Shown in pieces: positions 14,576-50,882 of a stretch of DNA of 64,000 nucleotides. Below the pieces are notes generated by a model, which had not been told where the DNA came from, ran no database searches, and saw only the letters and a list, made by a program, of their open reading frames with translations. This stretch comes from an uncultured Gammaproteobacteria bacterium (GTDB lineage Bacteria; Patescibacteriota; Microgenomatia; Woykebacterales; RBG-16-39-9b): positions 22,911 through 86,910 of the forward strand of contig CAYHXX010000003.1 of the NCBI GenBank assembly GCA_964360785.1, written 5' to 3'. How positions within the stretch are numbered: position 1 is the first letter of the stretch; every line of letters starts with the position of its first letter. A program made the translations under genes and the position numbers.

Positions 14576-14607
14576 AGATTATTTCACAATCCGAAAAAAA
14601 ATGTCAA
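14576..14607 (-). promoter_or_regulatory. Candidate sigma70-type promoter for the giant gene: perfect TTGACA and TATAAT separated by a 20-nt spacer containing a T8 homopolymer.
   Basis: Minus strand: TTGACA-TTTTTTTTCGGATTGTGAAA-TATAAT. The giant-gene ATG lies about 150 nt downstream. Confidence 0.35.
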
Positions 14608-14660
14608 GGCCCGATCTCTTTAATATATATACAGAAAAATTTCCGTGGTAAGATTTTATT

Positions 14661-15455: not shown

Positions 15456-15457
15456 GG

Positions 15458-15478
15458 TGACAAGGTCCGTCCTTGTCA
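15458..15478. repeat. REP-like palindrome (variant): tGACAAGG-TCCGT-CCTTGTCA.
   Basis: 7-bp stem GACAAGG/CCTTGTC and a 5-nt loop. It sits between the c-like gene stop and atpF. Confidence 0.6.
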
Positions 15479-18110: not shown

Positions 18111-18983
18111 ATGTATTCAAAAGCCGAACTAAAAAAATATTCAGATGCTGTTGCGACGATAAAGTCCATAACCAGGGTTTATGAGGAAGCAGCTGCTCGT
18201 CGGATCAAACTTATTCAAAACTCCGTCTCCAAAATTGACGAGTTTCTTGGTTCGACAGCAGATTCCTACGTGAACATAAAATTTGGATTGCTGGCTGAGG
18301 AGAAAAATAAAAAAGTCCCTCGGAAAGATATTCTTACACGCAGCTTTCGAGAGAAGACAAAAAAAGGAGTCTTAGTTTTGATATCTTCGCACGAACAGTA
18401 CTTTGGTAACCTGATCCCCAATGTGTATCGAGCCTGGAAAGAAGATTTACTGTCCAGCAACCTTGACGGAATTATCTTTGGAAATACCGGCAAAAGGCTA
18501 CTCGAGAAAGATAACCTCCAAAAGGACAGTATTGTTTGCTACGATCTGGCTGACAGCGATCCTGACTGGGAACTGGTCTACAGAATCGGTGAGAAAGTGG
18601 CCAGCTACGAAAAGATCGTTGTCTACTATGGTAAGTATCGAACTGTTCTGACCCAAACTCCGGAGAAAGCTGATCTGAGTACACCAATGACGGTGGGGCA
18701 GGTACAACAAGTGAAGCGCTATTTGTTTGAAGACCAGGGGGAAAATATCCTCGGTTTTTTTGAAAAAGAAGTAGTCAACGCCCAACTGCAGAAGCGTGTT
18801 TATCAGTCGCAGATCGCACGTTATGCCGCCAGAATCAAGATTTTAGAGATCGGACAAGTAGCAGAGCAGATGAGTAAAGTGCTAGGTGATCTGAGCCGGG
18901 GAAAGCTAAAAGTGCGGAAGAATTTGTCAAATAAGAAACAACTTCAACTATATACAGGACTAGATTTGTGGGGAGACAGTTAG
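18111..18983 (+). CDS. atpG: F-type ATP synthase subunit gamma.
   Basis: 290 aa between alpha and beta. N-terminus ...KSITRVYEEAAARRIKLIQNSV matches the gamma consensus (...ITKAMEMVAASKMRKAQ). Confidence 0.7.
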   Translation: MYSKAELKKYSDAVATIKSITRVYEEAAARRIKLIQNSVSKIDEFLGSTADSYVNIKFGLLAEEKNKKVPRKDILTRSFREKTKKGVLVLISSHEQYFGNLIPNVYRAWKEDLLSSNLDGIIFGNTGKRLLEKDNLQKDSIVCYDLADSDPDWELVYRIGEKVASYEKIVVYYGKYRTVLTQTPEKADLSTPMTVGQVQQVKRYLFEDQGENILGFFEKEVVNAQLQKRVYQSQIARYAARIKILEIGQVAEQMSKVLGDLSRGKLKVRKNLSNKKQLQLYTGLDLWGDS

Positions 18984-19036: not shown

Positions 19037-20473
<1,437 letters not shown>

Positions 20474-24767: not shown

Positions 24768-24771
24768 TTAG

Positions 24772-25107: not shown

Positions 25108-25122
25108 TTTGAGGAGAACACT

Positions 25123-25494: not shown

Positions 25495-25503
25495 AAATCC
25501 TAT

Positions 25504-25524
25504 TGACAAGGCCCGTCCTTGTTA
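25504..25524. repeat. REP-like palindrome TTGACAAGG-CCCGT-CCTTGTT.
   Basis: Intergenic, after the receiver at 25123..25494. Confidence 0.7.
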
Positions 25525-25558
25525 CTATAGAAGGGCGTTTTATTTTCTGGTTTTGAGT

Positions 25559-25587
25559 TTGACCAGAAGCTAGTTTTTCAATAGAAT
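25559..25587 (+). promoter_or_regulatory. Promoter TTGACC-17-TAGAAT, 7 nt upstream of the ATG of 25595..27853.
   Basis: 5/6 and 5/6 matches with 17-nt spacing. Confidence 0.45.
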
Positions 25588-25594
25588 AGAAGTA

Positions 25595-27853: not shown

Positions 27854-27856
27854 GAT

Positions 27857-29455
27857 ATGCTGCCCATTGCTTTTATCAGTCAAAACCTACACTTTGCCAT
27901 CCAACTCTTTGCAGCCTTGGTCTGCTTTGCTGTCTTCTGGCTGTATTTTGATGCTTGGCTCGCCCGAAAACAGAAGAAAGAAACTCTGCTTTGGGTAGGT
28001 TTTTTGCTACTTTGTGTTTCCTTTATTATCCACGCGACGGTAATCGAACAAGCTGTTCTGGGTAATTCTTTTCTCGGTGATATTACTGAGGGGTTATCGG
28101 GTGTAATTAGACTTTTTGGTTACCTCTTAATTATTTTTGGCCAGCTCAGAGACCCGCTACAGAGCGTTCCTAAAACTGAAGGAGTCAAACTAGAAAAAGC
28201 CCCTGCTATAGTTGGCCTGGGTTTTGTTAGCAATTGTTTAGTGTTTCTGCTACCCGTTGGTAGTGCGCTTTGCGGCTTACTTTACTACAGGCGGGCAACT
28301 ACTGGGTTGGAAAGGCATTTGCGAAAAGTAGCTTTAGCCTTTTTTGGTTTGGGGGTTTTTGAGCTACTGTCTTTATCGAAGTTCTTACAAACCTCCGACA
28401 ACCCTTTTTTATATAGCCTGTCCTCAAGTTTTGGTGCGATTTGGTATTTGGAGCACGCCGTTTTAGTTGTCAGCATGGTTTTCCTTGGTTTATGGGTTTG
28501 GCAATATTTAATTACGCGTTTGCAGAGTCAATTATTTATGATCTTCACTGGTACAATTCTGGCTATTTTTCTACTGACGACAATTAGTTTTACCTTTCTT
28601 TTGATCAACAATATTCAAAACGAGTCGTTGAGCAACCTGGCGACTGCCACCAATGTTTTAAATTACTCACTTAATTCCAAGAAAGATGAAACCCTCTCGA
28701 CCACCGAGAGCTTGGCAGGCAATCCGGATTTTGTTTCTGCAGTGCTTGCCAAGGATCACAAAAAACTCAACCTTCTCGGTCAAGGAGTTCTCGAAGACAA
28801 GAAGAAATCTTCAATTGTTGTCACTGATGATTCTGGTTTGGTGTTGTCTCGGGCCGAGGAGCCTGATCGTTGGGGTGATTCGTTGTCAGACGACCCGTTG
28901 ATAAGAAGATCTTTAGTTGGGTTGGAAGGAAACAGTATATCAACTAAAGAAGGCATTCTCGCACCCTTAATCTATATCAAATCAGCTGTTGCGATGCGGG
29001 ATCAGAACAAAAACATTATTGGCAGTTTGACAGTTGGTATTTTGGTTGATAATGCCTTTCTTGACGGTGTAAAAGCTGCAACCGGTCTGGATAGTGCTGT
29101 TTATGCTGGCAATACACGCGCTGCCACCACCTTTCTGGCAGAGGATGGCAAGTCGCGGTGGGTCGGAGTTAAAGAAGAAAGCTCGGAAATCAAGAACCAA
29201 GTTCTAAAAAAAGGTAGTACCTTCAAAGGTAGTGTTTCGGTTCTCAACAGACCCTTTATCGGCGCTTACAGTCCGCTGCGGGACGTTAACAACGAGATTG
29301 TGGGAATGATCTTTATTGGTAAACCCCAAAGCTCGATCTTGTTGGCGGCTGGCAAAAGTATTGAGCTGACGTTTCTAGTGGCAGTAGCCTTGATCTCACT
29401 CTCGATAATTCCGTCTTTCTTTGTATCACGTTACCTGAGTAGGCAGCTATCTTAA
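27857..29455 (+). CDS. Membrane Cache/PDC-like sensor protein without an output domain, paralogue of 22755..24356.
   Basis: MLPIAFISQNLHFAIQLFAALVCFAVFWLYF... . Conserved ...WGDSLSDDPLIRRSLVG...VNNEIVGMIFIGKPQSSILLAAGKSIEL..., then a terminal TM. Confidence 0.55.
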   Translation: MLPIAFISQNLHFAIQLFAALVCFAVFWLYFDAWLARKQKKETLLWVGFLLLCVSFIIHATVIEQAVLGNSFLGDITEGLSGVIRLFGYLLIIFGQLRDPLQSVPKTEGVKLEKAPAIVGLGFVSNCLVFLLPVGSALCGLLYYRRATTGLERHLRKVALAFFGLGVFELLSLSKFLQTSDNPFLYSLSSSFGAIWYLEHAVLVVSMVFLGLWVWQYLITRLQSQLFMIFTGTILAIFLLTTISFTFLLINNIQNESLSNLATATNVLNYSLNSKKDETLSTTESLAGNPDFVSAVLAKDHKKLNLLGQGVLEDKKKSSIVVTDDSGLVLSRAEEPDRWGDSLSDDPLIRRSLVGLEGNSISTKEGILAPLIYIKSAVAMRDQNKNIIGSLTVGILVDNAFLDGVKAATGLDSAVYAGNTRAATTFLAEDGKSRWVGVKEESSEIKNQVLKKGSTFKGSVSVLNRPFIGAYSPLRDVNNEIVGMIFIGKPQSSILLAAGKSIELTFLVAVALISLSIIPSFFVSRYLSRQLS

Positions 29456-29459
29456 AGCT

Positions 29460-30596
29460 ATGAACAAAGTTCAAACCAAGGTCATCATTCTTTCAATCGT
29501 GTTGTCGGTAATTATAGGTCTAGGATCTATTTACTTTACCTCTGCCAACCAGAAAAGTGTTCAAGCACTGTTCAAGAGTCGACAAGAAGAAAAAGAGGCT
29601 CTTTTTGATAATTTACTCAAATTGAAATCAGCTTCTCTGCTGTCCTATGCTTACGACTATACCTATTGGGATGAGATGGTCAAGGTAGTAGAAGAGGGAG
29701 ACGAAAAAATTGCCAAAGAAAACATTGACACGAGTCTTGCTACCTACGGAGCCAACGCCGTTTGGGTCTACCGACCAGATTTCTCCTTGGTATATTTTGT
29801 CGGCGATGAAAAGGTAGGCAGTTCTAAGAAAGTTTCACTGGAGACAAACGATTTGGAGAAAGCATTTGGAGCAGGTTTGTTTCCGCATTTTTATATCAAA
29901 ACGGGGGCTGGTTTGATGGAGCTGGCCGGCGCACCAATCCAACCCACAAGTGATACTGAACGCAAGACTACACCGCGCGGTTTTTTTCTGACAGGCAGAC
30001 TTTGGGACAAGGGTTATCTTGATGAACTAGCAGGTTTTATGTTTGGACAGGTAGAGCAAACCAGCACAGACGACAAAGATGGGCATCTGACTGAAAGTAG
30101 TCTAAAAGATGGGGTTATATTTTTCGAAAGACAACTCAATGGTTTTGATGGTAAGCCAGTCGACTCAATTCATGTTGAAGCCACGACACCGACAACTACA
30201 CTTTTGAGCCAAACCACAAACAATCATATGTACTATCAAGTACTATCATCTATTTTTGCTGTCTTTTTGGCAATGTTTTTTCTTGCTCGTTGGATTATCT
30301 ACCCACTTATTCGAGTTTCCAGAAGCCTTGCTGAGGGCGATACTAAGTTTATCGCAAGCCTAACAAAAAAGCGCGATGAGTTTGGGCAAGTGGCACAGCT
30401 GATAGTAAAGTTCTTTGAGCAAAAAGTATTACTGGAAAAAGAGGTAGCGGAACACTTTAGGGCAGAGAAAGAGATGCAAAGACAAAAGGACGAGCTTGAA
30501 CGAATCAACAAGACCATGATTGACAGAGAATTAAAAATGATTGAATTGAAAGAAAGAATTGCCGACCTTGAATCTAACTTAAAGGAAGAGAAATAA
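29460..30596 (+). CDS. Membrane sensor with a CHASE4-like periplasmic domain, TM helix, HAMP and coiled coil, and no output domain.
   Basis: N-terminal TM. LLSYAYDYTYWDEMVKVVEEGD resembles the CHASE4 DYA-WDDTY motif. Second TM. HAMP-like IYPLIRVSRSLAEGDTKF...GQVAQLIVKFFEQK. C-terminal coiled coil. The stop is 2 nt before the kinase gene. Confidence 0.5.
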   Translation: MNKVQTKVIILSIVLSVIIGLGSIYFTSANQKSVQALFKSRQEEKEALFDNLLKLKSASLLSYAYDYTYWDEMVKVVEEGDEKIAKENIDTSLATYGANAVWVYRPDFSLVYFVGDEKVGSSKKVSLETNDLEKAFGAGLFPHFYIKTGAGLMELAGAPIQPTSDTERKTTPRGFFLTGRLWDKGYLDELAGFMFGQVEQTSTDDKDGHLTESSLKDGVIFFERQLNGFDGKPVDSIHVEATTPTTTLLSQTTNNHMYYQVLSSIFAVFLAMFFLARWIIYPLIRVSRSLAEGDTKFIASLTKKRDEFGQVAQLIVKFFEQKVLLEKEVAEHFRAEKEMQRQKDELERINKTMIDRELKMIELKERIADLESNLKEEK

Positions 30597-30598
30597 GA

Positions 30599-32935
30599 AT
30601 GGATACACCAGAAAAAGTTTCTAGTGATGTTGATTTTTCTCAAAAATCCAAGCTGATTTATCAGTTTTCTAGTGTTGGTTTCGTTTCTCTGATTCTTTTT
30701 GGGATCGTCAACTTAACACAAGGGCAAACTTCTTCCGGAATAACTGAGCTTATTTTTGGTTTGGCTATTCTGGGCAATATGGCCTATCTACACTGGCAAG
30801 GTGACGTAGAATTTGCTGCCAATGGTGTACTTTTGCTGATGCTTGGGGTACTGACTTTTCTCCTTGTTGATGGTGGTATTGATAAATCCGGGCTTTTTTG
30901 GTTTTATACTTACCCGGCCTTGGCTTTTTTTCTCAAAGGTCGGAAAAAGGGTGTAGTTTGGATTTCGGTGCTGCTATCAATGGTAGTACTAGTTACTGTA
31001 ATGAGTATGTTAGCTTTGGTGGAAATACCTTTCTCCGATGTGATTATCCGCCAACTCTTGGTTAGTTTATTCGTTGTTTCTTTTTTGATTTATCTCTACC
31101 AACAGGTTAATGAGAAGAAAGAGAAGTTGCTCGAAACCGATCGCCAAGATCATGAAAAGCAAACGCATATTCTTGAGGAAAAGGACTTGGTTATCCAAGA
31201 GACCTTAAAAGGAGTTGAGGAGCAAAATCAAAATTTGTCCAATACCAAGCTGGCAATGCTCAATGTTTTGGAAGACGCCAAGGAATTGCAGACAAAACTA
31301 CAATCTCAAACTGATGAATTGCGCAAATTCCAACTCGCAACCGAAAGTTCCTATGAGCACATAATTATCACTGACAGTAAAGGTGTGATTCTCTACGCCA
31401 ACCCCGGAGCGGCGCGCAACACTGGTTATTCGATTGAAGAAATGATTGGCAAGACGACGGCTCTTTGGGGTGGTCAGATGGACAAAGATTACTACCAGAA
31501 GATGTGGCAGACTTTGGTTAAAGATAAACAGCCTTTTGTCAGTGAAATTACCAATAAACGCAAAAACGGTGATAAATATATCGCCCAGTTAAAAATCTCA
31601 CCGATTTTGGACGACAAAGATGAAATTAAGTTTTTTGTCGGTTTGGAAAACGATATCACCAAAGAACGAGAACTAACTACGCATCTGCGTGAAGAGAAGG
31701 CGAATGTTGAGCTCAAGGTGCAGGCACGGACAAAAGAGCTTCAAGATGAGCAGGGGAAATTACAGGCTTCAATCAACAGTTTGAATGTTGGTTTTGTAAT
31801 GACCGATACTGCCTACAATGTTGTTAATATCAATAGCACGGCTAAGCGAATTCTTTGTATTAACGATTTCAAGACAATATTGAAGGATCCAAGTAGTATT
31901 GGTTCCAATTGTAGTTTGGAAGATATCGAAGCGAACCTAAAAAATGTTGTTGATCTTCGACAAAATATCAAAAAATGTTTGAGCGAGAAAAATATTATCA
32001 ATATTGACGATATCAGCTTTAACAACCGCTTTCTGCACTTTTTCCTCTCGCCAATCGCACTCTACCGTGAAAAACTGGATATCATCGGTGTTGTAATTTT
32101 GGTTGAGGATGTCACTGAAGCCAAAATTTTGGCCAGATCCAAAGACGAGTTTTTCTCAATCGCTTCCCATGAGTTGCGCACACCTCTGACCGCGATTCGG
32201 GGAAACACGGCTTTGATGAAAGATTACTACTTTGACAAAATCCGAGATAAAGATTTGAAAGTTATGATCACTGATATTCATGAATCTTCAGTACGACTAA
32301 TACAAATCGTCAATGATTTTTTGGATACTTCTCGTTTGGAGCAAGGTCGGATCGATTTCCACAACGAAGACTTTGACTTGCCAACGGTGATTGAGGAAGT
32401 TGCTAAGGAACTAGAACCCAATCTTGCAGCTGCGGAACTCTATTTAAAGCTGAAGCCATCCAATGTCCCGATCCCACTTGTGATTGCCGATCGCGATCGG
32501 GTTAAACAAATTTTGATCAATTTGATCGGCAATGCGATTAAATTTACCGAAGAAGGCGGAATTTCAATTGCACTGTCCCCAAAGTCCTCATCTGTGAAGC
32601 TTTCAATAACCGATACTGGTAAGGGTTTGACCGAGGAGAATAAAAATTTGCTTTTCCGCAAGTTCCAGCAAGCAGAGGACAATATTTTGACTCGGGATGC
32701 GACGCGGGGGACAGGGCTTGGGCTCTATATTTCCAAGCTTTTGATTGAGGGTATGGGCGGGAAAATCTATTTGGAGGCTTCCGAAGAGAAGAAAGGTTCA
32801 ACTTTTAGCCTTGAATTGCCAGCAGTGGCCAAGATCGAATTGGTCGCTCCGGAGACAGCAGAGGGTCCAAAGAAGAGTAAAAGAAAATTTAAACCAAGTA
32901 ACACTCCAGCAAAAAAGAAAGTTGTCAAAAAATAG
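30599..32935 (+). CDS. Sensor histidine kinase: N-terminal multi-TM region, PAS domain, HisKA and HATPase_c.
   Basis: H-box FFSIASHELRTPLTAIRG. N-box IGNAIKFTEEGG. G-boxes ITDTGKGL and GTGLGLYISKLLIE. PAS-like region around ...ATESSYEHIIITDSKGVILYANPG... Confidence 0.85.
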   Translation: MDTPEKVSSDVDFSQKSKLIYQFSSVGFVSLILFGIVNLTQGQTSSGITELIFGLAILGNMAYLHWQGDVEFAANGVLLLMLGVLTFLLVDGGIDKSGLFWFYTYPALAFFLKGRKKGVVWISVLLSMVVLVTVMSMLALVEIPFSDVIIRQLLVSLFVVSFLIYLYQQVNEKKEKLLETDRQDHEKQTHILEEKDLVIQETLKGVEEQNQNLSNTKLAMLNVLEDAKELQTKLQSQTDELRKFQLATESSYEHIIITDSKGVILYANPGAARNTGYSIEEMIGKTTALWGGQMDKDYYQKMWQTLVKDKQPFVSEITNKRKNGDKYIAQLKISPILDDKDEIKFFVGLENDITKERELTTHLREEKANVELKVQARTKELQDEQGKLQASINSLNVGFVMTDTAYNVVNINSTAKRILCINDFKTILKDPSSIGSNCSLEDIEANLKNVVDLRQNIKKCLSEKNIINIDDISFNNRFLHFFLSPIALYREKLDIIGVVILVEDVTEAKILARSKDEFFSIASHELRTPLTAIRGNTALMKDYYFDKIRDKDLKVMITDIHESSVRLIQIVNDFLDTSRLEQGRIDFHNEDFDLPTVIEEVAKELEPNLAAAELYLKLKPSNVPIPLVIADRDRVKQILINLIGNAIKFTEEGGISIALSPKSSSVKLSITDTGKGLTEENKNLLFRKFQQAEDNILTRDATRGTGLGLYISKLLIEGMGGKIYLEASEEKKGSTFSLELPAVAKIELVAPETAEGPKKSKRKFKPSNTPAKKKVVKK

Positions 32936-32951
32936 CTGGTAACAGTATAAT
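32922..32951 (+). promoter_or_regulatory. Promoter TTGTCA-18-TATAAT, 6 nt upstream of the receiver ATG at 32958. It lies inside the 3' end of the kinase gene.
   Basis: Perfect -10 and 5/6 -35. Confidence 0.45.
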
Positions 32952-32957
32952 CTCATT

Positions 32958-33350
32958 ATGGCAAAAATATTGATAATCGAAGACGACCCTCTGATGTCTC
33001 GGTTGTACGAGAAGATTTTTACCTTTGAAAAATATGAAGTCGTCTTGGCAGATAATGGCCAGGACGGATTGGATAAGGCGAGAACTGAGAGTCCGACACT
33101 GATATTGCTTGATATCATGATGCCGAAAATGAATGGCCTACAGGTCTTAGAGAAGCTTAAGGCCGATCCGGACCTAAAAAAGATCCCGGTCGTGATGCTC
33201 ACCAACCTAGCTGGGGATAAAGATGCCGAGACAGCGCTAGCCAAGGGTGCAGTCAAATATATTATCAAAAGTAATCAAGATCCCAAGCAAGTTTCCGGCA
33301 TGGTCAAAGAAATTCTTGCCGGTTACACCCGCGACGAAATCCCTACCTAA
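32958..33350 (+). CDS. Stand-alone response-regulator receiver domain.
   Basis: MAKILIIEDDPLMSRLYEKIF...LLDIMMPKMNGLQVLEKLK...PVVMLTNL...KYIIKS. Paralogue of 24393..24767. Confidence 0.8.
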   Translation: MAKILIIEDDPLMSRLYEKIFTFEKYEVVLADNGQDGLDKARTESPTLILLDIMMPKMNGLQVLEKLKADPDLKKIPVVMLTNLAGDKDAETALAKGAVKYIIKSNQDPKQVSGMVKEILAGYTRDEIPT

Positions 33351-33354
33351 TATC

Positions 33355-33376
33355 TTGACAAGGCCCGTCCTTGCAG
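33355..33376. repeat. REP-like palindrome TTGACAAGG-CCCGT-CCTTGCAG, immediately 5' of the RAYT gene.
   Basis: Perfect consensus copy 15 nt upstream of the RAYT ATG. Confidence 0.7.
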
Positions 33377-33390
33377 AGTAAATTACTCCC

Positions 33391-34050
33391 ATGCCAATTC
33401 GCAAAACTAGTTTTTTTGAAAATGGTTTTTATCATGTCTACAACCGCGGCGTCGAGAAGCGGGAGATTTTTCTTGACGAAAAAGATTACCAATCTTTTGT
33501 CGGTATTTTAAAAACTTATCTTTCAGAAGATATATCAAACAATAGTGAAATTACGTTGCAAGGACGGGCCTTGCAGGGCAAACGAATCAGAAAACATAGC
33601 CTTGGCGAGGAAGTGAGTCTGGTTGCATATTGCTTGATGCCGAATCACTTTCATCTATTGCTGCAGCAAAGATTCTCAACGTCGATTACAAATTTTATGC
33701 GTCGGGTTCTAACAGCCTACTCGATGTATTTCAATGATCGTTACGAACGGGTAGGGAGTTTATTCCAGGGCCGCTTCCAAGCCAAAGATATTTCCAATGA
33801 CGAATACCTATTGCATTTAACTCGTTACATTCACCGCAACCCAGTCGAAGCAAAAATAGTTAAAATTCAAAACTTAGAAAAATTTAAGTGGTCCTCTTAC
33901 CAAAATTATCTGGGGTTAAAGGAGGTCGTTTGGGTGAAGTCAAAAGCAATTCTTGATTACTTTTCGTCAATAGAGAGCAACAAAGACTACAGGAGTTTTG
34001 TTGAATTCGAGTCGGAAGAAAATCTTCCAGAAAGTTTACAAATTGACTAA
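33391..34050 (+). CDS. IS200/IS605-family HUH tyrosine transposase of REP-associated (RAYT-like) type.
   Basis: YHVYNRG...LMPNHFHLLLQQ (HUH motif)...LTRYIHRNPVEAKIV (catalytic Tyr). Single copy, bracketed by REP palindromes at 33355 and 34057, with one more inside at 33556. Confidence 0.75.
   Translation: MPIRKTSFFENGFYHVYNRGVEKREIFLDEKDYQSFVGILKTYLSEDISNNSEITLQGRALQGKRIRKHSLGEEVSLVAYCLMPNHFHLLLQQRFSTSITNFMRRVLTAYSMYFNDRYERVGSLFQGRFQAKDISNDEYLLHLTRYIHRNPVEAKIVKIQNLEKFKWSSYQNYLGLKEVVWVKSKAILDYFSSIESNKDYRSFVEFESEENLPESLQID
33556..33576. repeat. REP-like palindrome in inverted orientation (TTGCAAGG-ACGGG-CCTTGCAG), inside the RAYT CDS and in frame.
   Basis: Encodes ..LQGRALQG.. within an insertion of about 20 aa between the YHV and HUH motifs. 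Confidence 0.55.
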
Positions 34051-34056
34051 AATTAG

Positions 34057-34133
34057 CCTGCAAGGCCCTGTCTGCCGACCAGTCTGCCGACCAGTCTGCC
34101 GACAGGCAAGACAGGCACGACCGTCCTTGCAAG
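34057..34133. repeat. Composite REP: the stem arms CCTGCAAGGCCC and CCGTCCTTGCAAG are separated by a 52-nt insert containing 3 x 12-nt tandem repeats (cTGTCTGCCGAC / CAGTCTGCCGAC x2).
   Basis: Tandem units at 34068-34103. Located 3' of the RAYT gene. Confidence 0.6.
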
Positions 34134-34226
34134 TACTAGGGTTGGAAGTTAGTTCAGTTAAGGTTATAGAATGTTTATAGGAATTTATATGTCGCTAAAG
34201 CACCATATATTTCTTAAGAAAGTAAT

Positions 34227-34637
34227 ATGAAAAGTGATGAAGAGTTACGAAAAACTTTTAAGATCGCAGTCAATGATACCAATTTGATTCAGGTCGCCAT
34301 TTATTCAAGCGAATCCGATGAAGGTGACAATGGTCGCCAAGCCGAACTTGTTGTCGAGGGAATTGGTCAAATTGTTGGAGCTGATACAAGTAAAACTTAT
34401 AAATTTCTAGTTGATTTATCTGTTTCCGGAACTATTCATTCGCTTTCCCCGAAAGCCCGCAAAGCCTACGAGAGCTTAGGTCGGTTCAATAATATCGACA
34501 AAGCGGCGGTGGTCGGAAAAAGTCTATTTTTGGAAGTCACGGTAAATCTAATCGTCCAAACTCTTGGTCGTGGTAGTAATTTCAAATGGTTTGAAAATAT
34601 TGACGAGGCCAGAAAGTGGTTAGCTGAAGGTCCTTGA
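34227..34637 (+). CDS. Small hypothetical protein, possibly STAS/DUF4325-like.
   Basis: 136 aa. C-terminus ...VVGKSLFLEVTVNLIVQTLGRGSNFKWFENIDEARKWLAE resembles the end of STAS-fold proteins. Its TGA stop lies inside a degenerate REP. Confidence 0.3.
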   Translation: MKSDEELRKTFKIAVNDTNLIQVAIYSSESDEGDNGRQAELVVEGIGQIVGADTSKTYKFLVDLSVSGTIHSLSPKARKAYESLGRFNNIDKAAVVGKSLFLEVTVNLIVQTLGRGSNFKWFENIDEARKWLAEGP

Positions 34638-34655
34638 CAAGTCCCGGCCTTGCAG
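34634..34655. repeat. Degenerate REP-like copy TTGACAAGt-CCCGg-CCTTGCAG.
   Basis: Two substitutions relative to the consensus. It overlaps the TGA stop of 34227..34637 and lies just 3' of the giant gene's stop. Confidence 0.45.
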
Positions 34656-34661
34656 AGCAAG

Positions 34662-37600
34662 TTACTGTTGGTTCAAGATAAACCAGGTGAATTTGATAGC
34701 GGTTGTTGCCGAAGCAGTTGCTTGATCTGGTTGATCTCCACTACTACGTTCCAGTGCCACGACAAAACCCTCTCCGACTTTCTTTTCTTTAATATAAAGT
34801 GACAGCCCATTGGTTTTGGTTGAAGCGGTTAGGTTGATCAGGGATTCCTCTGTCACCTTGTCTGATTCAATAAAGACCTCAGTGGCATCAGCAGCAAAGA
34901 TAGCCTCACCAGCAGTCTTGGCCTCTTTCTTGACCACGGCTTCACCAAAGACCAATTTACCAAAATCACCGACTAATGCAGTTACTTTAGAGAAAAGTGC
35001 TTCGCCAGTGTCAGACACCCAAGCAACTGCTTGGCCAGTTGAATTTTCCCAAACAAATTTTGCTCCAGCCGAAAGAGGTGCAATTAAATCACCATTTTGG
35101 TCTAATGTCACGGTAGTCGCAGTTGTGGTTTCCAAGATTTGTTCTGGAGAAGGAACAAACCAAGTTCGGTTTACAAACACTAAAACTTTACCATCTTCGG
35201 TTGGTTCGTCAGAAGTTTTTGCTTGGTTTTCACTTCCTTGCAGCGTTGCTGATCCAGTCGCGACTGGGTTTTCTGAAGAATTTTCCTGGCCACCTTCTAC
35301 TCCAAGGCCCGGCCTTGGAGGGAAGTCTTCGAGAGCCATACCAATGACAAAACCGGCTTTCTTGGCTTTCATCGCCACTCCAGGAATACCCGAAGAGGTT
35401 AGATAATCACCGGCCTTGATAGGGTCGGCTCCGTTGTTGGTCGTAACGCGCAAGGGTACGCGTCCAGATAGGGCAACCGGATGTCCGCCGGGTTTGTTTT
35501 GGCCCAGTGTGAGTCCCGGTTCAGTCGAAACAATTCCGAGCATTTCATTTTGGTAAGGCTTATCGGTGGCAGTAATAAATTCACCTGTCTTATCGGTATC
35601 AACCGAAACCAAAGTCCCAGCGTCCAAGCCAATATCGGAGTAGTAGTACTCAGCCAAGTCAGCCCCACCGGTGAAGCCAACTTCGAGACCCTGACTACCA
35701 GTAAGAATGATACCGTCTTGAATCAGTTCTCCCCTAATATTAAAGAGTTGGTTGGCAAGATAATCCAGCCCCTGGCCGAGCCGAACATCTCTAGTTTCGG
35801 CATATATGTGAGCCTCCGTACCGATGAGCAAAGCTCTTCCTGAAAGATCTATAGAACGAATATCATCATAGTTCGTGCCAGTCCACTCAACGGCATAGTC
35901 ATCGGTTTGGGCTGAGTTGGAATGAAAGAGATCGGCGATAAGATTAGGTCCGGCTTGGTGGTTATAACAAGTCACGCCGCCACCATCTGCAGTATCATTG
36001 GTACCAATGCACATCTGTCTGGCTTCTCCCAAAGGAGATTCGGCCGTTACACCAACAGCCGTAACTGTATCGGATGCTCCGTATAAAGCCTCCGGGTCGA
36101 CTTCAAAATCAGTGGTCGTATCCGGAGTGGTGGCAAAATTGGATGAAACTGTAAGAGTCGTAGTGGTATTTGAAACAACGCGTCTGGTTTGTCCCACTCC
36201 GGTGCCGCCGGTAAGGGTGACTATCATGCCAGAAAATTCATTCGGAATCCAGGTTTCACCCGAGTCTCCAATAGTGCTTGAAGAAACGGTCGTAGCGTCG
36301 GTTACTGTTATAACTCGTTTTGCTACTAATGGCCGTGCATCGTTATATAAACGGCGGGCAGGAGCGGAGAGTAGTTGGGAAACCGTTGTTGCCCCGCTGC
36401 TGAAAGTAAAGTCGTCGATCGAACCATCCCAGAAGTTCGCGCCGGTAGCGCAGTTGGCAGCCCCTGCACAACTGGCTCCGATACTAGTCACCTGAGAAGC
36501 GGCGTCTACTGTCCCTGCTTGCGGTGTCGCATTGGTTGAATTCAAAATTTGTCCATCTATATACACATTAAGATCGCCGACGTTATCGCGTGCGAGTAAG
36601 AGAAAGTGCCACTGATCATCATTATAGGCAAGCGAGGAAGTCGACGTGATATCGTAAGTCGTGAACTGGGTGAATGTCGTGGTAGCATCAATGGCCCCGA
36701 CAATAGTCCCGGTAGTGGTCATATAGGCGACGACACACCCGACGACCGCGGCCGGTGTGGTGTTGTAGCATTTTTCGTACAAGACTTGCGGGGCAGCCGG
36801 GGCTGTTGTGGAGTGTTTGAACCACATGCTGATATTAAATGCCGTTGTAGTGCTGTTGAAACTAGCATCATTGTCACAGGTGGCGTCAGCATTGGCATCG
36901 GAACAAAGATAGCCCGCGCCACCCAGTGTCACACCCTTGCCGCGGACTCCACTGGCTCCAAGCGTAAAGGTTCCCTTGTAGCTCATATCGGTATTATTGA
37001 AACTGGCATCCTGCGCCAACGTTCCACTTGTTTCATCTAGTGGCAGAGCGGCATCAATAGCATTGGGCATCAACATGGTTTGACGGGTAGTGTTATAGAA
37101 TTTGGACCAACCGTTGGTGACAGTAGCGTTATCATGAATTTCGGTCAGACCCAAACTATGTCCGACATAAATAAGATCCATATTGTCTTGAGCGAGCGAT
37201 CCTCTTTCCACTACTTCCAAGGCGTCGGGCGCATCGGTTTGAATCGCCACCGCTCCCACTGCCAAAGCCGGGCCGACAGCTGAAGTCCAACGCGAAGTAT
37301 ACGTACCAGCTACTTCACTCGTCTTATCAGAATCAATCGCATCCCACTTTTCAGCCTGATCGGTTGTGGAATTCAAGGCATACATTTTACCGCTTTTTGT
37401 CAGGGCGACGGCTTCATAATTATCTGCCAATACATCTGAATATTGGAGCAGCTTTTGGGCTGCCAGGTTGATAATAGTCACTCCTGAATCGGTGGCCAGT
37501 GCCACAAACGATAGTCCTTGCCCGGGGATAACGTTTGTGGTACCACCGATGGTAATCGCCGAAAGACTGCTGTTGACGCTGACTGCGGCGACGTCGTTGA

Positions 37601-40600
37601 TGTTCATCCATTCCGCCGATGTGCCAACCGGGTCAAGTTGAAGCGCGGTTTTAGCGTCGCTGGCATAGGTAACAGCGCCGTTGCGCCCGCTGATACCAAC
37701 ATCCGCGCCAGCCCGATCGGTGGCGTCATAATTCCACATACGATCATTGACGAAGTCAAAGGCATACAAACCGCCGGAAGCAGTACCTTTTGCGCCGACA
37801 TAAATCACGCCGTTTAGTGCCGTGACACTGGACGGATCATTATTGGTATCTGCTCCTAGGGCCCAGCCGGCGGCATTCTGGCTAAACTTCATCCACATAT
37901 CATTGGTGGCCGCATCAAAAATATAAAGCGAGTCGGTGGTGACGATAAGGATGGCTTTACGGGGAAAAGCTTTGGCGTAACAACGGTCGTCGGTGGCGAT
38001 GACACAGGGATCACTAGGACCGTCATCAAGCGTTTCGTTGTACCAAGAAAGCTGGTCGGTAGTGGCCCAATCTATCCAACGGCCGCCATCACTGTCGGCA
38101 GTTGTATCATAGACATAAATGTCTTTGATTCCGGTTAGAGCAGTGATATCTGAATACCCTTGAGAGACTATTTCTCCGTAAACTGAGGCATTACCACGAT
38201 TGGTTGGGGAGCCGATCTGGAGTAGCCTCTCTGTGGAGCCAGTTATTGATATTGTCCCAACCCCAACTCGGCCGTCACCGTCAATTATAAATGGCGTTGT
38301 GTCGCTTGCGACATCATCAATACGGAGAGCCATGTTACCAGTTCCGGTAGCGCGATGATCAACATAAAGACTGGTGTTGGTATTGGCCGTACCAGTATTG
38401 CTCAGTTTGAGAAGGCTACCGGTATTGGCGGCGTTGGATCCAGAGAGAACCAGTTCGGTGAGGGAACCAGTGAAAGCAATTGCCGAAGAGCTGACCGTTA
38501 TACCTTTTCCTGAGGTCAAGCCGTTGGTAGTAATTGCTAGAGCAGTTTCACCGTCAATAGCGTTGGCAGTGAGGTTGATACCATTGGCTGCATTTGAAGC
38601 TTGTACTAAATCAAGTCCTAGGACAGCAGCGGTGGTGTTGTTTTGGTTGATCTGTAGTGTAAAAGCGCTGCTTGTTCCAGCTGAAGTTGGATTGGTGATA
38701 ACGATAGAGTCTTGGGTGGCATCAAGGGTGATCAATTGATCGCCAGCTGCACCAGCGTCATAAGTTTGCTGTAAGGTACCGCCACCACCGCCACAACCAG
38801 TACAAGAAGACACTGTTAAAGCAGCTGAAGCAAAGCTAAGAGTGGTAGCATTCGAGGTGAGATTTAGGCTCCCATTTCTGTAAAGATTAACGCTATTGGC
38901 ATCAGTTCCCCATTGGATTCCAGCAGAAACTGTAGTGGACGAAAAAGTCCCATCAAGACAATCAAAACAAAGCCCAATGTTTTTCGTACCACCGGCAGTA
39001 ATATTATCAATATGGACCCCGTAGGCATTGGTAATAACATCAGCAGTACCTTTAATTAAATCAGCAGCTTCGAGTGCAACACCATCTTGAAGGGTAATCG
39101 CTCCGCCAGTCGAGTCGTCGACTTTTACTGTCCCTGATATTCCGAAAGCTATCCCAGTCGGCGAGTTGATATTGACTATTGGTTGGGAGTAAATTCCAAC
39201 ACAGCCTCCAAAAAGGGCAATCGGACAAGTTGCAGAGCTATTGTTGACGTTACCAATTGCTTGGAAGATGCTTTGTCCTGCGGAGAATAGCAGAGTGCCA
39301 TTACCTGCAGCAGTATTGCCGATAAATTTAATAAAGCCATCGGTGTCGTTTTCCACCTTTTCGCCGTTGGTGAAGGTGATGTCTCCACTAGCCCCAGTGA
39401 AAGTAAGACCAGTGGTTCCACCAATGACAAAGTTGTCATCGGTTTTGAGAGTATCACTGGCAGAGCGGTAGAGAGTTACCAGATTGGTATCAGTCCCAAA
39501 CTGGATCCCTGCGGCCACCGTGCTCGAAGCCCAAGCACCATCACAGTCAAAACAGAGGGCAACATTAGTGTTGGCTCCTGAGACATCAGCAAGGTAGAGA
39601 CCGATGGCTGTGGTGGTTCCATTGGTGTCTCCAGTCGCGTCAAAGTAGCCTCCGTAGGTATTTCTTGTTCCTGTGCCGGTACTGGTATTAGAAGCAGATG
39701 AATAAATGCCGTAGAGGTTAAATACGACTGCGCCACCGGCGGTATCGATTCCTGTTTTACTGACGGTGTTATAAATTCCGTAATCATTTTGTGGGCTAAA
39801 GACTGAGGCAAACGCCGTACTTGAGGTCCAGGAATTGTAAACACCGTAGCTACCACCGCCATTATTATCGGTAGACGTGAAGGAATTATCAATACCTCTT
39901 ACATCATCAGTTGCGCTAGTGGTATTAACATCCAGCACGCCAGCACCGCCGACTGCTCCTGTGCCATTGATAAGGACTGTACTAGCAAAGGTAGTGGCAT
40001 CCTGAACATCGAGAATATCCGCACCGTTAATGATGACATCATTACCAGCTCCAGCTGAAGCGATGGTGATCGCACCCGTTGCAGTAATATCACCGACATC
40101 GGTGATTGTATTGGCATTGAAATCTAGGGTTGTATCGGAGAAGGAGTATTCAGTTGCATCATTTTCTCGTAAGTTAATCAAGCCGCCATCGGTGACGTTA
40201 ATCATCAAATCATTTGTACTCGAAGCATAGATTGATCTGACAGCTGAAGGGGCAGATGCATCAGCAGTTGTGAAGGTTAGGCTGTCGTTGGTGGTGTCAT
40301 CGACTTCTCCGGAGAACCCTCCAGGACAAGCTCCCCAAACTGGAACACCGCTAGCCCCAGCTCCAGAAAGTAGACACTGGCTGCCGGTTTCAGTTTCTAC
40401 GACTCGAGTAACGACTCCGCCAGTTGTTGTGTACAAAACCGCGTTAGCGTCAGTGATCATCGAAGAGAAGGTAATAGCTCCAGAGGAGGTGAGTGCTGTT
40501 GCGCCAGTGATTGCCCCTGCGCCAGTGATATCGATGGTTGGGGTGTTAAGAAAATTACTGTAACCATTACCAAAAGCACCGGTATTGGTGATACTGATTG

Positions 40601-42194
40601 CATCAGTAAGCAATAGATCGGTATCGGCGTTATCAATTGCGATTCCGACATCCAAACCATTACCACCAGCAGCCGCTGCTTGTTGAATAAACAAACCTTG
40701 GGTAGCGAAGTCGGAAGCATTTGGAGTCGCAATCAGTGAAATTACATTAACAGTACCCGCAAGATCTGAGGTCATAGCAATATTTTCTGTTCCGGCGAGA
40801 GTGAAGTTGGTATCGGTATTAAAGGTAGGAGTTCCGTTAACCGTAATAGTATCGCCGGTAGCGTTTCCAATTCCGATTGTTGTTGAGTTTACAGTTAAGG
40901 CTGTACCGTCATCGACGGTCAGTGTACCAGAAGAAAAACTGTCAGAAGTATCGCTTCGCAAGAATGAAAGAGAGTCAATTCCGTCCAAGCTGTCAGAGTT
41001 GAGAGCGTAACTTGAAGAAGCGATTCTTTGACGAGGAGCTGCTTCAGCATCAGCACCAATTTTTACCCCCAAGTAGAGCGCTGAGTTATCTGCAAAAAGG
41101 GTTGAGGGGATAGCGGTGTCGGCTTGTCCAGTATCGCCAAGTTGTACTGAAAAGATACCGTTTGCATCTGGTGTGACCGACCAAGTTTTGGATTCCCAAA
41201 GACAGGTGTTGGCACAAGGGTCTCCTGTGTCCCCACTGGTAGAGGTGTAAATTCGAAAAACGATGTTGGTAGCAATTGTGGTTGGGTTACCGCTTAGGTC
41301 AGTCAACCTTCCTTGGAAGGAAAGAATTCGGGGTGGGGTCGCAGCAAGGACTAGACCATCTTGGATCTCATTTTTGAGGTTGGTGATATCAAGGGGTTTG
41401 GGAGCAAAGAAACCCTCAAAAAGCAGTAATCCAACGACCAAAATCGCCCCAGTGCTGGCTGCCCAGTTGACGTAGTCGCTCATTGGGTGTCCTCGATAGG
41501 CGTGCCACCATCGGGGTTTGCTAAACTTAATTCGTTGCCAGAAATGCCCAACATTTGCAAGGACGGGCCTTGTAATGGTGACGGGGTTGGTTTCGTAGAC
41601 AATATCTTCCTTGTGGAGGTTAAAGAATGATTTCAAACTATAAAGTTGACTTTGGATTGTGCTCTCTGTTGTTCCCTTTGATCGCAAGTAAGATATATAT
41701 CTTTCTATATCATTGTGACTCACTTTGTCGATATTCTTCTGTGATAAAGTTTCCGCGCCACTCTGATTTGGTTTTAACCAAGCGAAGAATGAAGCTACTC
41801 CTGCGGTATAAAGCTTGGTTGTGCTCGAGGCTGCCCCCTCGGATTTAATATGTTCGGAGTAAACTTCAATCGGTGAAGAAAGGGTATTGTCTGATATCTT
41901 TTGAGGTATTTGAGTAATAGTAACTAGGTTATAACCTTTGGAGTTTAGCCAACTGCAAAATGATTTGAGACTGTAACCAAATCTCCGCAGCGTTGACTCT
42001 GAAAACTGTCCCCCTAGAGTTGCAACGGCTTGGTTTAGAGAATCCTGCCCGATCTCCAAATCTGCCGGAAGTTTCTCAAGAATTGTCTTCAAATCAGAGG
42101 TGTAGTTCTTGATTGTTGAACGCGAAGAATTAGTTGAAGATAAGTAATCTATGAAAGATGGTAGAAGACTGTGTAGTTCTTTTGAAGTTAGCAT
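34662..42194 (-). CDS. Giant surface protein, 2,510 aa as the open frame. The N-terminal 237 aa carry two integrase SAM-like (core-binding) repeats. Met238 (41483) is followed by a TM helix and a Thr/Gly/Ser/Asn-rich ectodomain ending in the conserved C-terminal module (...FTWFILNQQ).
   Basis: Open frame from 42194 to 34662. N-terminal STIKNYTSDLKTILEKL and STIQSQLYSLKSFFNL (SAM-like). MSDYVNWAASTGAILVVGLLLF TM. A 500-nt block at 38990-39480 is about 85% identical to 52000-52510 in the 50888..54199 gene. C-terminal GDYLTSSGIPGVAMKAKKAGFVIGMALEDF. Confidence 0.7.
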   Translation of the reverse strand: MLTSKELHSLLPSFIDYLSSTNSSRSTIKNYTSDLKTILEKLPADLEIGQDSLNQAVATLGGQFSESTLRRFGYSLKSFCSWLNSKGYNLVTITQIPQKISDNTLSSPIEVYSEHIKSEGAASSTTKLYTAGVASFFAWLKPNQSGAETLSQKNIDKVSHNDIERYISYLRSKGTTESTIQSQLYSLKSFFNLHKEDIVYETNPVTITRPVLANVGHFWQRIKFSKPRWWHAYRGHPMSDYVNWAASTGAILVVGLLLFEGFFAPKPLDITNLKNEIQDGLVLAATPPRILSFQGRLTDLSGNPTTIATNIVFRIYTSTSGDTGDPCANTCLWESKTWSVTPDANGIFSVQLGDTGQADTAIPSTLFADNSALYLGVKIGADAEAAPRQRIASSSYALNSDSLDGIDSLSFLRSDTSDSFSSGTLTVDDGTALTVNSTTIGIGNATGDTITVNGTPTFNTDTNFTLAGTENIAMTSDLAGTVNVISLIATPNASDFATQGLFIQQAAAAGGNGLDVGIAIDNADTDLLLTDAISITNTGAFGNGYSNFLNTPTIDITGAGAITGATALTSSGAITFSSMITDANAVLYTTTGGVVTRVVETETGSQCLLSGAGASGVPVWGACPGGFSGEVDDTTNDSLTFTTADASAPSAVRSIYASSTNDLMINVTDGGLINLRENDATEYSFSDTTLDFNANTITDVGDITATGAITIASAGAGNDVIINGADILDVQDATTFASTVLINGTGAVGGAGVLDVNTTSATDDVRGIDNSFTSTDNNGGGSYGVYNSWTSSTAFASVFSPQNDYGIYNTVSKTGIDTAGGAVVFNLYGIYSSASNTSTGTGTRNTYGGYFDATGDTNGTTTAIGLYLADVSGANTNVALCFDCDGAWASSTVAAGIQFGTDTNLVTLYRSASDTLKTDDNFVIGGTTGLTFTGASGDITFTNGEKVENDTDGFIKFIGNTAAGNGTLLFSAGQSIFQAIGNVNNSSATCPIALFGGCVGIYSQPIVNINSPTGIAFGISGTVKVDDSTGGAITLQDGVALEAADLIKGTADVITNAYGVHIDNITAGGTKNIGLCFDCLDGTFSSTTVSAGIQWGTDANSVNLYRNGSLNLTSNATTLSFASAALTVSSCTGCGGGGGTLQQTYDAGAAGDQLITLDATQDSIVITNPTSAGTSSAFTLQINQNNTTAAVLGLDLVQASNAANGINLTANAIDGETALAITTNGLTSGKGITVSSSAIAFTGSLTELVLSGSNAANTGSLLKLSNTGTANTNTSLYVDHRATGTGNMALRIDDVASDTTPFIIDGDGRVGVGTISITGSTERLLQIGSPTNRGNASVYGEIVSQGYSDITALTGIKDIYVYDTTADSDGGRWIDWATTDQLSWYNETLDDGPSDPCVIATDDRCYAKAFPRKAILIVTTDSLYIFDAATNDMWMKFSQNAAGWALGADTNNDPSSVTALNGVIYVGAKGTASGGLYAFDFVNDRMWNYDATDRAGADVGISGRNGAVTYASDAKTALQLDPVGTSAEWMNINDVAAVSVNSSLSAITIGGTTNVIPGQGLSFVALATDSGVTIINLAAQKLLQYSDVLADNYEAVALTKSGKMYALNSTTDQAEKWDAIDSDKTSEVAGTYTSRWTSAVGPALAVGAVAIQTDAPDALEVVERGSLAQDNMDLIYVGHSLGLTEIHDNATVTNGWSKFYNTTRQTMLMPNAIDAALPLDETSGTLAQDASFNNTDMSYKGTFTLGASGVRGKGVTLGGAGYLCSDANADATCDNDASFNSTTTAFNISMWFKHSTTAPAAPQVLYEKCYNTTPAAVVGCVVAYMTTTGTIVGAIDATTTFTQFTTYDITSTSSLAYNDDQWHFLLLARDNVGDLNVYIDGQILNSTNATPQAGTVDAASQVTSIGASCAGAANCATGANFWDGSIDDFTFSSGATTVSQLLSAPARRLYNDARPLVAKRVITVTDATTVSSSTIGDSGETWIPNEFSGMIVTLTGGTGVGQTRRVVSNTTTTLTVSSNFATTPDTTTDFEVDPEALYGASDTVTAVGVTAESPLGEARQMCIGTNDTADGGGVTCYNHQAGPNLIADLFHSNSAQTDDYAVEWTGTNYDDIRSIDLSGRALLIGTEAHIYAETRDVRLGQGLDYLANQLFNIRGELIQDGIILTGSQGLEVGFTGGADLAEYYYSDIGLDAGTLVSVDTDKTGEFITATDKPYQNEMLGIVSTEPGLTLGQNKPGGHPVALSGRVPLRVTTNNGADPIKAGDYLTSSGIPGVAMKAKKAGFVIGMALEDFPPRPGLGVEGGQENSSENPVATGSATLQGSENQAKTSDEPTEDGKVLVFVNRTWFVPSPEQILETTTATTVTLDQNGDLIAPLSAGAKFVWENSTGQAVAWVSDTGEALFSKVTALVGDFGKLVFGEAVVKKEAKTAGEAIFAADATEVFIESDKVTEESLINLTASTKTNGLSLYIKEKKVGEGFVVALERSSGDQPDQATASATTAIKFTWFILNQQ
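41555..41576. repeat. REP-like palindrome (inverted on +, canonical on the - strand), in frame inside the 5' region of the giant ORF 34662..42194.
   Basis: TTTGCAAGGACGGGCCTTGTAA. It separates the SAM-like N-terminal region from Met238 and the TM helix. Confidence 0.55.
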
Positions 42195-50860: not shown

Positions 50861-50861
50861 C

Positions 50862-50882
50862 CTGCAAGGCCCGTCCTTGCAG
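50862..50882. repeat. REP-like palindrome CTGCAAGG-CCCGT-CCTTGCAG between convergent genes.
   Basis: Perfect 8-bp stem. Located between the stop of 50405..50860 (+) and the stop of the giant gene 50888..54199 (-). Confidence 0.7.

Follow-up and report, generated by a model that had tools for sequence, protein, structure and literature searches.

A probable REPtron-like system of a Y1/HUH enzyme gene and its short hairpin repeat in a patescibacterial genome

REP-associated enzymes and the locus described here

Systems that pair repetitive extragenic palindromic (REP) sequences with a REP-associated tyrosine transposase (RAYT) belong to the textbook knowledge of enterobacteria and pseudomonads. 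The rayT gene of Escherichia coli is bracketed by its own REPs, and these are found as well in operon spacers and between convergent genes. To our knowledge, no intragenic REP copies have been described in rayT. According to reviews, the inverted doublets known as REPINs occur in Groups 2 and 3 of these enzymes only. The locus described here lies in a stretch of 64,000 nucleotides of contig CAYHXX010000003.1 from an uncultured patescibacterium, which was analysed as a whole and is referred to as the window. It comprises a gene for a Y1/HUH enzyme and copies of a short palindrome, called REP copies below. As in the case of rayT, the gene is bracketed by its own repeats, and operon spacers and the space between convergent genes also contain them. 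The hairpins are unlike the E. coli REPs, which are about 35 nt long and possess a bulged stem and an essential GTAG. In a REPtron the gene is flanked by a palindrome family repeated elsewhere, an arrangement that is observed in the window. Gene and palindrome probably constitute a REPtron-like system, in which a Y1 (HUH/tyrosine) nuclease for single-stranded DNA, domesticated and inherited vertically, is paired with its cognate short hairpin. No link of REP or RAYT to Patescibacteria was found in the open-access literature, and a REP/RAYT-type system in this lineage and with this enzyme subtype is without prior description.

The hairpin family in the window

The core of the repeat is CAAGG-CCCGT-CCTTG, consisting of a 5-bp stem closed by GG and a 5-nt loop. 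A search with CAAGGCCCGTCCTTG, allowing up to two mismatches, returned 10 matches at 9 positions in 64 kb; 0.08 are expected, and the observed number was reached in 0 of 100 shuffles. Four copies are gathered within 1.3 kb around the Y1 gene. The six others are located elsewhere in the window: two in spacers of the ATP synthase cluster, one before a gene with an fn3 domain, one between convergent genes, and two in a giant gene. All palindrome positions listed in a preliminary description of this DNA are real, including the half-site at 14602, and its count of at least nine copies stands with the addition of a tenth, at 35300–35320, which had been overlooked. The same description requires correction in other respects. 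The loop, considered invariant, reads TCCGT at 15458 and CCCGG at 34634 and 35300, and the stems, given as 5–8 bp, were found to measure 5–9 bp. The copies had been assigned to gene boundaries, but those at 33556 (in the Y1 gene) and at 35300 and 41555 (in the giant open reading frame (ORF) 34662..42194 on the minus strand) lie in frame inside coding sequences. The gene had also been described as bracketed by the palindrome, which is accurate for the upstream copy, but the downstream copy is not intact, its loop being split by a 52-nt insert (34069–34120) with three 12-nt tandem units of the form C[T/A]GTCTGCCGAC. The insert is not present in the orthologous loci L004, L005 and L006, and the orthologues keep the downstream copy intact. 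Its tandem 12-mers read CTGTCTGCCGAC, CAGTCTGCCGAC and CAGTCTGCCGAC, followed by AGGCAAGACAGG, which is able to pair with the first unit.

No inverted doublets (REPINs) occur among the 10 copies of the 64-kb window. The GC skew is positive throughout, and CCCGT lies on the G-rich strand in 7 of the 9 orientable copies, a small sample. No T-runs follow the stems, a terminator scan gave nothing above shuffles, and Rfam returned zero matches across the window at gathering thresholds. The TIRYT repeat GGGG[AT][CG]A[CG] has zero matches on both strands of 32891–34700. The copies at 33355–33390, 34634–34665 and 50861–50895 have a 3' extension in common, GCAGAG-yAA-nTTACT. This may represent shared gene ends and not a longer REP, since the TTA at 34634 and 50861 is the stop of two large minus-strand genes with common repeat families.

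The Y1 enzyme

The preliminary description had recognised a Y1 HUH protein by NHFH and YIHRNP motifs. Both are confirmed, at residues 85–88 and 146–151, and the Pfam profile Y1_Tnp (PF01797) matches the protein with 43.1 bits, above the gathering threshold of 23. Over 7900 homologues received a score in a single search. Across a set of 88 homologues, H86 and Y146 never vary, and the conservation of H88 reaches at least 90%. The family consensus at the catalytic tyrosine is YIHxNP, and with YIHRNP the window protein bears the class 2 Y...NP signature. The NCBIfam model NF047646 (REP_Tyr_transpos, equivalog) is matched by 88/88 family members, with a best E-value of 1.9e-16. A sequence search of the PDB with the family profile gave ISDra2 TnpA as the sole match (E 0.04), and a fold search was therefore required. 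An AlphaFold (AF2) model was built from the 88 homologues, with a predicted local distance difference test (pLDDT) score of 89.7 and a predicted template-modelling (pTM) score of 0.87; this model and a Foldseek search assign the TnpA-type alpha/beta fold to the protein. The top PDB match is 4ER8, the E. coli TnpA_REP (RayT) bound to a REP hairpin (E 3.8e-8, template-modelling (TM) score 0.70 on the target). It shows the same catalytic layout, with 13% structure-based sequence identity, and the TnpA proteins of IS608, ISDra2 and IS200 rank below it (E 1e-4 to 1e-3). An hhalign comparison with E. coli RayT aligns the HUH, (W/F)Q, Y..NP and W.S motifs. In the model, the peptide LQGRAL encoded by the intragenic REP copy (residues 56–61) is part of a low-confidence surface loop (45–70).

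The gene had been reported as single-copy, and indeed no second Y1 gene was found by tblastn in the 64-kb window. Y1_Tnp is the sole Pfam report for the protein at E-values up to 0.1, and no helix-turn-helix (HTH) was found in it. A protein identical to the window Y1 is present on Hainich groundwater contigs from the 0.1-µm fraction.

Hairpins at Y1 genes of other Patescibacteria

A metagenome scan yielded 80 further loci of the family, and 77 loci entered the hairpin statistics. Perfect hairpins (5+5+5 nt) were collected per locus and grouped at up to two mismatches in either orientation; as perfect 5-bp stems and 5-nt loops are demanded, this procedure undercounts. At least two hairpins of one group lie within the gene ± 90 nt at 43 of the 77 loci (56%), compared with 1.6% of 1600 random intervals of equal length. 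The hairpin density amounts to 3.3 per kb at the Y1 gene versus 0.064 per kb elsewhere. Hairpins recur from –27 to –60 upstream of the gene, at nt 145–197, at nt 445–507 just after Y..NP, and from +1 to +30 past the stop, and the TGA stop is frequently found within the stem of the downstream hairpin. Both orientations and all three reading frames are represented among the intragenic copies, which encode peptides such as LQGRAL, LTGxNPV, PTRPGL, and others; this suggests that insertion at two loops, either tolerant or preferred, took place repeatedly and not as one ancient event. Inverted, REPIN-like doublets were found in L025, L051, L077, L088 and L101.

The orthologues at L004, L005 and L006 share 61–73% amino acid (aa) identity. 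In these loci the Y1 gene adjoins the 3' end of an orthologous giant gene, and the same response-regulator gene precedes it in L004 and L006. Its neighbours are unchanged in all samples carrying the identical Y1 protein. The fixed position of the gene, present as a single copy in 64 kb, supports vertical inheritance and not an insertion sequence (IS). The palindromes of the three orthologous loci are placed as in the window, ~30–47 nt before the ATG, at the LQGRAL codons in the ORF, and directly after the stop; in L004 the palindrome is additionally found where the giant gene encodes its N-terminal portion. The flanking loops of L004 are CC[CG]GG, not CCCGT, and its intragenic copy has changed synonymously to match, from GGA to GGC. 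A compensatory change is also seen in the intragenic stem among orthologues, with CTCCAAGG/CCTTGGAG versus TTGCAAGG/CCTTGCAG. Members of 46–52% identity (L023, L025, L027 and L028 in Table 1) possess different hairpins in the same places, and the loops of more distant members read TCTAA, TCTCT, TTCAA, CCAGG, TCCGA, and others. A second Y1 paralogue in L004, which scores 42.5 bits against Y1_Tnp, lies between copies of an unrelated palindrome, GTGTACAC..GTGTACA. Stem and loop thus shift with the Y1 lineage and the paralogue has its own palindrome, a pattern of enzyme-substrate co-evolution. The repeats on both sides of this paralogue (L004 16685–17314) are of the GTGTACAC-CCCGG type.

The upstream copy of the window overlaps a predicted promoter. 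In a promoter scan, its TTGACA (33355–33360) doubles as a –35 box, separated by 18 nt from the –10 box TAAATT (33379–33384). In the orthologous loci L004, L005 and L006, the upstream copy takes the form TTGACAAGG..CCTTGTCAA-g-TAAATT, 6–7 nt before the ATG. The position of the –10 box, 6 nt before the ATG in the window, suggests a leaderless Y1 mRNA, and the overlap of the copy with the –35 box and spacer might permit autoregulation of the gene. A promoter role for all copies was considered and rejected, as a usable –10 box is found just at the Y1-gene copy and perhaps at 25503.

Proposed mechanism and alternative explanations

A mechanism can be modelled on the E. coli TnpA_REP and the IS200/IS605 TnpA. 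The Y1 protein would recognise the folded hairpin on transiently single-stranded DNA, with a specificity provided by the stem and loop sequence. Cleavage would take place nearby through Tyr146, while His86 and His88 would hold the metal. Rejoining of the strands might then occasionally deposit hairpin copies at new sites, such as intergenic spacers, gene ends and tolerant surface loops of proteins, including two of Y1's own product. Binding of the protein at the upstream copy could autoregulate the Y1 gene. The fold and catalytic motifs, the association of the gene with its hairpin, their co-variation between lineages, the dispersal of copies, the single copy number and the synteny are observed directly. 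We infer binding, cleavage and copying by this protein from homology, and mobility and autoregulation are putative.

Several observations weigh against a REPtron-like system. Characterised TnpA_REP enzymes need a GT[AG]G guide for cleavage (PMC8266576), and subclass 2.1, whose motifs fit those of the window enzyme, has been reported as not REP-associated (PMC6006769). A check for GTAG-like flanks had been proposed in the preliminary description; no GT[AG]G was found beside the hairpin foot at nine aligned copies, whose flanks read TTGA, CCTG, CTC and TTA. The Y1 protein scores 55.3 bits with NF047646, for which the cut-off is 80, and hhalign finds no more than a marginal resemblance to E. coli RayT (E 0.017). 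The stems of 5–9 bp are weakly stable when folded as single-stranded DNA (–4 to –10 kcal/mol), and the hairpin density away from the gene is modest, ~0.06–0.1 per kb. Moreover, the copies at 25503 and 41555 and the three at the Y1 gene sit at orthologous sites in other species; they are therefore old and could be retained for some other reason. The enzyme is not a canonical RAYT, as the GT[AG]G foot is absent and the NCBIfam RAYT score is below the cut-off. The earlier reading as a REP/RAYT system survives as regards function, with a single-copy, non-IS Y1 gene whose own palindrome is both flanking and dispersed, a pattern found family-wide in Patescibacteria. It does not extend to strict membership of the described families, from which these two features set the system apart.

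The palindrome could instead be primarily a regulatory signal of the host, such as a promoter element, a stem that stabilises mRNA or the operator of a dimeric DNA-binding protein. The Y1 protein would then move nothing, its gene being merely controlled by the signal or encoding a hairpin- or palindrome-binding regulator. This explanation appears improbable, although it would account for a 15-mer that, as CAAGGCC-S-GGCCTTG in L004 and at 35300, comes close to a perfect palindrome of double-stranded DNA, for the TTGACA-18 nt-TAAATT layout, 6 nt before the ATG, that is kept in L004, L005, L006 and L027, and for the several copies kept at orthologous sites across species. For the conserved copies a purely regulatory role is conceivable. 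An operator would not be expected to lie in frame within coding sequence, with both orientations and every frame represented, at two hot spots of one gene family, nor to change in stem and loop with the Y1 lineage or to be replaced by a separate palindrome at the second Y1 paralogue. In many members the hairpin does not include TTGACA, and CTGCAGGG, TCGCAAGG or GTGAAAGG takes its place. The copies at 15457, 19061, 34634 and 50861 are accompanied by no consistent –10 box or start-codon distance, and the stems lack the T-run of a terminator. The conservation of the catalytic residues, with H86 and Y146 invariant and H88 at 90% or more, would be needless for a pure regulator.

It is far less probable that 33355–34133 (779 bp) is an ordinary IS200-type IS, consisting of tnpA with subterminal hairpins, and that the other palindromes are its solo ends or miniature derivatives. 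The length and the order hairpin-Y1 gene-hairpin are like those of IS200, and the Pfam family is that of the IS200-like transposases. IS200/IS605 elements are known to have short derivatives in the form of hairpins. However, one copy is present in 64 kb, and the neighbours are the same in three other species at 61–73% identity and in all samples with the identical protein. The preliminary description had named multiple identical transposase copies with IS200-type ends as the sign of an ordinary IS; none were seen, and the position of the gene is kept at that degree of divergence. The Y...NP (class 2) signature differs from the Y...Q of IS200 transposases, and 219 aa with a C-terminal tail contrast with the ~150 aa of IS200 TnpA (PMC6006769). 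The fold is also nearer to TnpA_REP than to the TnpA proteins of IS608 and ISDra2. An explanation that deserves hardly any credence treats the motif as another over-represented word, such as a DNA uptake sequence or a restriction-modification-related site with the centre CCSGG, so that its proximity to the Y1 gene would be incidental. Uptake sequences are often arranged as inverted pairs at gene ends. Natural competence is reported for Patescibacteria (PMC10633639), and the central CC[CG]GG resembles a type II recognition site. Such a word would not explain why hairpins are enriched 50-fold at Y1 genes relative to the remainder of the loci, an enrichment that extends across many unrelated hairpin sequences, and CCSGG is not general, because most window copies have the loop CCCGT and relatives have TCTAA, TTCAA, TCTCT, and others. 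Known uptake sequences are also roughly ten-fold denser than the ~0.1 per kb found here.

Beyond the REPtron-like system favoured for the window, a wider proposal can be made, which is doubtful at present. The Y1 enzymes would form a huge Patescibacteria-wide clade of subclass-2.1-like members with lineage-specific REP systems in genomes of ~1 Mb. The hairpin would have been written repeatedly, in frame, into two loops of its own gene, besides overlapping its own promoter. The gene would thus be the preferred target of its product, and the intragenic and promoter copies might represent a self-sensing autoregulatory circuit and not neutral scars.

Features of the locus and neighbouring genes

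Table 1. Y1 gene, REP copies of the window, and hairpins of selected related loci.
Feature	Position	Strand	Description
Y1/HUH gene	33391..34050	+	219 aa ORF; Pfam, AF2 model, fold match, invariant residues
Motifs of the Y1 protein			YHVYNRG 14–20, NHFH 85–88, LFQGRF 124–129, YIHRNP 146–151, WSSY 167–170
Half-site TGTCAAGGCCCG	14602..14613	+	12 nt; left arm and part of loop, without right arm
Dispersed REP copy	15457..15478	+	GTGACAAGG-TCCGT-CCTTGTCA; between two + strand genes, ATP synthase cluster
Dispersed REP copy	19061..19082	+	between ORF 18111..18983 and ATP synthase beta gene
Dispersed REP copy	25503..25522	+	between response-regulator gene and fn3-domain gene
Upstream REP copy	33355..33376	+	TTGACAAGG-CCCGT-CCTTGCAG; motif search, folding
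Intragenic REP copy	33556..33575	-	+ strand TTGCAAGG-ACGGG-CCTTGCA; in frame, encodes LQGRAL (residues 56–61)
Downstream REP copy, loop-split	34057..34133	+	left half CCTGCAAGGCCC 34057–34068, right half CCGTCCTTGCAAG 34121–34133
Decayed REP copy	34634..34654	+	TTGACAAGT-CCCGG-CCTTGCA; stem mismatch, no longer folds
REP copy in giant ORF	35300..35320		CTCCAAGGC-CCG-GCCTTGGAG; in frame, encodes PRPGLG; form as in L004 copies
REP copy in giant ORF	41555..41575	-	in frame, encodes TRPVLA; junction after N-terminal Phage_int_SAM domains
Dispersed REP copy	50861..50882	+	CCTGCAAGG-CCCGT-CCTTGCAG; between convergent genes; most stable, –9.9 kcal/mol
L023 hairpin			TTGACAAGG-TCTAA-CCTTGTCAA
L025 hairpin			ACAAGG-TCTCT-CCTTGT, with inverted doublet
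L027 hairpin			TTGACAGGG-TTCAA-CCCTGTCAA
L028 hairpin			TGTCAGGG-AACAA-CCCTGACA

The features are collected in Table 1. L004 and the related genome CAYIWY01 (L011) retain the copy at 25503 in the same place, and the copy at 41555 has an orthologous copy in L004 (15640). The copy at 34634 overlaps the TGA stop of ORF 34227..34637; it is situated near the 3' end of the giant gene, between convergent genes, and is orthologous to the downstream REP of L005 and L006. ORF 34227..34637 (+) is a SpoIIAA-like/STAS gene of 136 aa (Pfam 30.9 bits) with REP copies on both sides, its stop being contained in the REP at 34634. This gene is absent from the orthologous loci L004, L005 and L006. It lies between the split copy (34057) and the ancestral downstream copy (34634), and looks like a gene gained between two REPs.

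Differences between species are also found in the ATP synthase cluster, where ORF 18111..18983 is placed as the putative gamma gene by its position and by analogy with L006. The spacer before the beta gene contains a REP in the window versus two other palindrome families in L006, in which the REP copy is placed after the beta gene instead. The L006 spacers (2785–2807 and 5895–5985) contain ATGTCCACCCGACGGGTGGACAT twice and TGTACACCTCGGAGGTGTACA, and neither of these families has a copy in the window. The relatives of the ATP synthase beta protein carry the names Curtissbacteria, Woykebacteria, 'Patescibacteria group' and Saccharimonadales, which indicates that the host is a member of the candidate phyla radiation. 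A contig scan with the 18-mer TGACAAGGCCCGTCCTTG gave 7 exact matches in CAYIWY01 and 9 single matches in unrelated high-GC genomes, the latter within the range of chance. CAYIWY01 possesses many copies of the repeat, on four contigs. The CAYIWY01 contigs examined (L007, L010, L011, L013, L020 and L021) have a GC content of 40–42% and 76–82% DNA identity to the patescibacterial window. The genome bears the title 'uncultured Gammaproteobacteria bacterium ERP119705_co4_291', a taxonomic label that looks wrong.

The giant ORF next to the Y1 gene (34662–42194, minus strand) encodes 2510 aa. Three Phage_int_SAM-like domains, i.e., tyrosine-recombinase core-binding domains, lie within its first ~205 residues; PF02899 matches there in 3 stretches with 59 bits, and PF13495 and PF13102 match as well. 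After these come a predicted membrane segment and a very long region rich in Thr, Ser and Gly. The catalytic domain of a recombinase was not seen in this ORF. The orthologues of the giant gene in L004, L005 and L006 likewise adjoin Y1, and the Y1 gene of L025 adjoins a gene for 4157 aa. A second giant gene (<1–14443, minus strand) extends beyond the left end of the window; its open frame of 4814 aa or more contains many internal repeats, among them families D1, D6, D7 and D15. The half-site at 14602, possibly a decayed copy, is found ~160 nt upstream of its start region. A perfect AT-rich stem of 14 bp with a 3-nt loop, GTATTTCAAACAGT-TAT-ACTGTTTGAAATAC, is located at 42390–42420, in the divergent spacer between the start of the first giant gene (42194) and a GDSL-lipase/dockerin gene at 42465, and may be an operator. 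On the other side of the Y1 gene, the region 22755–33350 is a dense block of sensory genes, including those for dCache and CHASE4 proteins, for a MASE6-PAS-HisKA kinase (30599–32935), and for stand-alone receiver-domain proteins, at least three in number, whose 5' ends are nearly identical (family D19). Such a density of sensory genes is unusual for a reduced genome.

Significance and comparison with known systems

The hairpins of the Y1 loci tie a Group 1/subclass 2.1-like enzyme to its own short, GTAG-less repeat across many Patescibacteria lineages. The host range of such systems is thereby extended to ultra-small and reduced genomes, in which one would expect repeats to be purged. The loci offer a natural set of matched enzymes and hairpins, differing in loop and stem, with which Y1 specificity can be studied, as well as markers for genome rearrangement near the giant surface-protein genes of these organisms. 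They are also of importance for annotation, as genes of this kind bear the label 'transposase' and proteins acquire short peptides through in-frame REP insertions.

Among the described systems, the REPtron Mb of Marinomonas sp. MWYL1 (Group 3/subclass 2.5 TnpA_REP, PMC8266576) likewise comprises a single-copy Y1 gene flanked by small perfect palindromes, in that case with a 5-bp stem and a 4-nt loop. In both Mb and the window system the copies cluster around the gene. The bases of the loop matter for recognition in Mb; in the present system the loop is conserved within the genome and variable between lineages. The Mb REPs carry GTAG 2 nt from the stem, whereas none is present here. The motifs of Mb are DH[LF]H and WQ, compared with NHFH and FQ in the window protein, which has an extra C-terminal tail of ~65 aa. 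The host of Mb is a gammaproteobacterium, in contrast to the patescibacterium described here.

A further likeness is found with subclass 2.4 TnpA_REP (Bertels Group 4) from Cyanobacteria and Bacteroidetes (PMC6006769), which also have in-frame REPs inside the Y1 gene, in peripheral loops, together with flanking copies. The intragenic sites in the present family, before HuH (~residues 50–65) and just after Y..NP (~150–160), differ from those of subclass 2.4. That subclass is further set apart by its WQ and YIxNNP motifs and by long REPs with a GT[AG]G foot.

By its motifs, compared with Table 1 of PMC6006769, the window enzyme resembles subclass 2.1 (Bertels Group 1). Members of this TnpA_Y1 subclass, which are probably TIRYTs (PMC6006769, PMC5581495), share NH[YF]H, FQ and Y[IV]H.NP with the window protein. 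They also resemble it in their size of ~220–240 aa, in a proximal C-terminal tail with an SS motif (WSSY here), and in their low copy number. Subclass 2.1 proteins often possess a C-terminal HTH (Bac_DnaA_C, HTH_23 or HTH_28), whereas Pfam finds none here. The subclass has been reported without REPs nearby, whereas in the present family hairpins occur at –27 to –60, at +1 to +30 and inside the gene itself.

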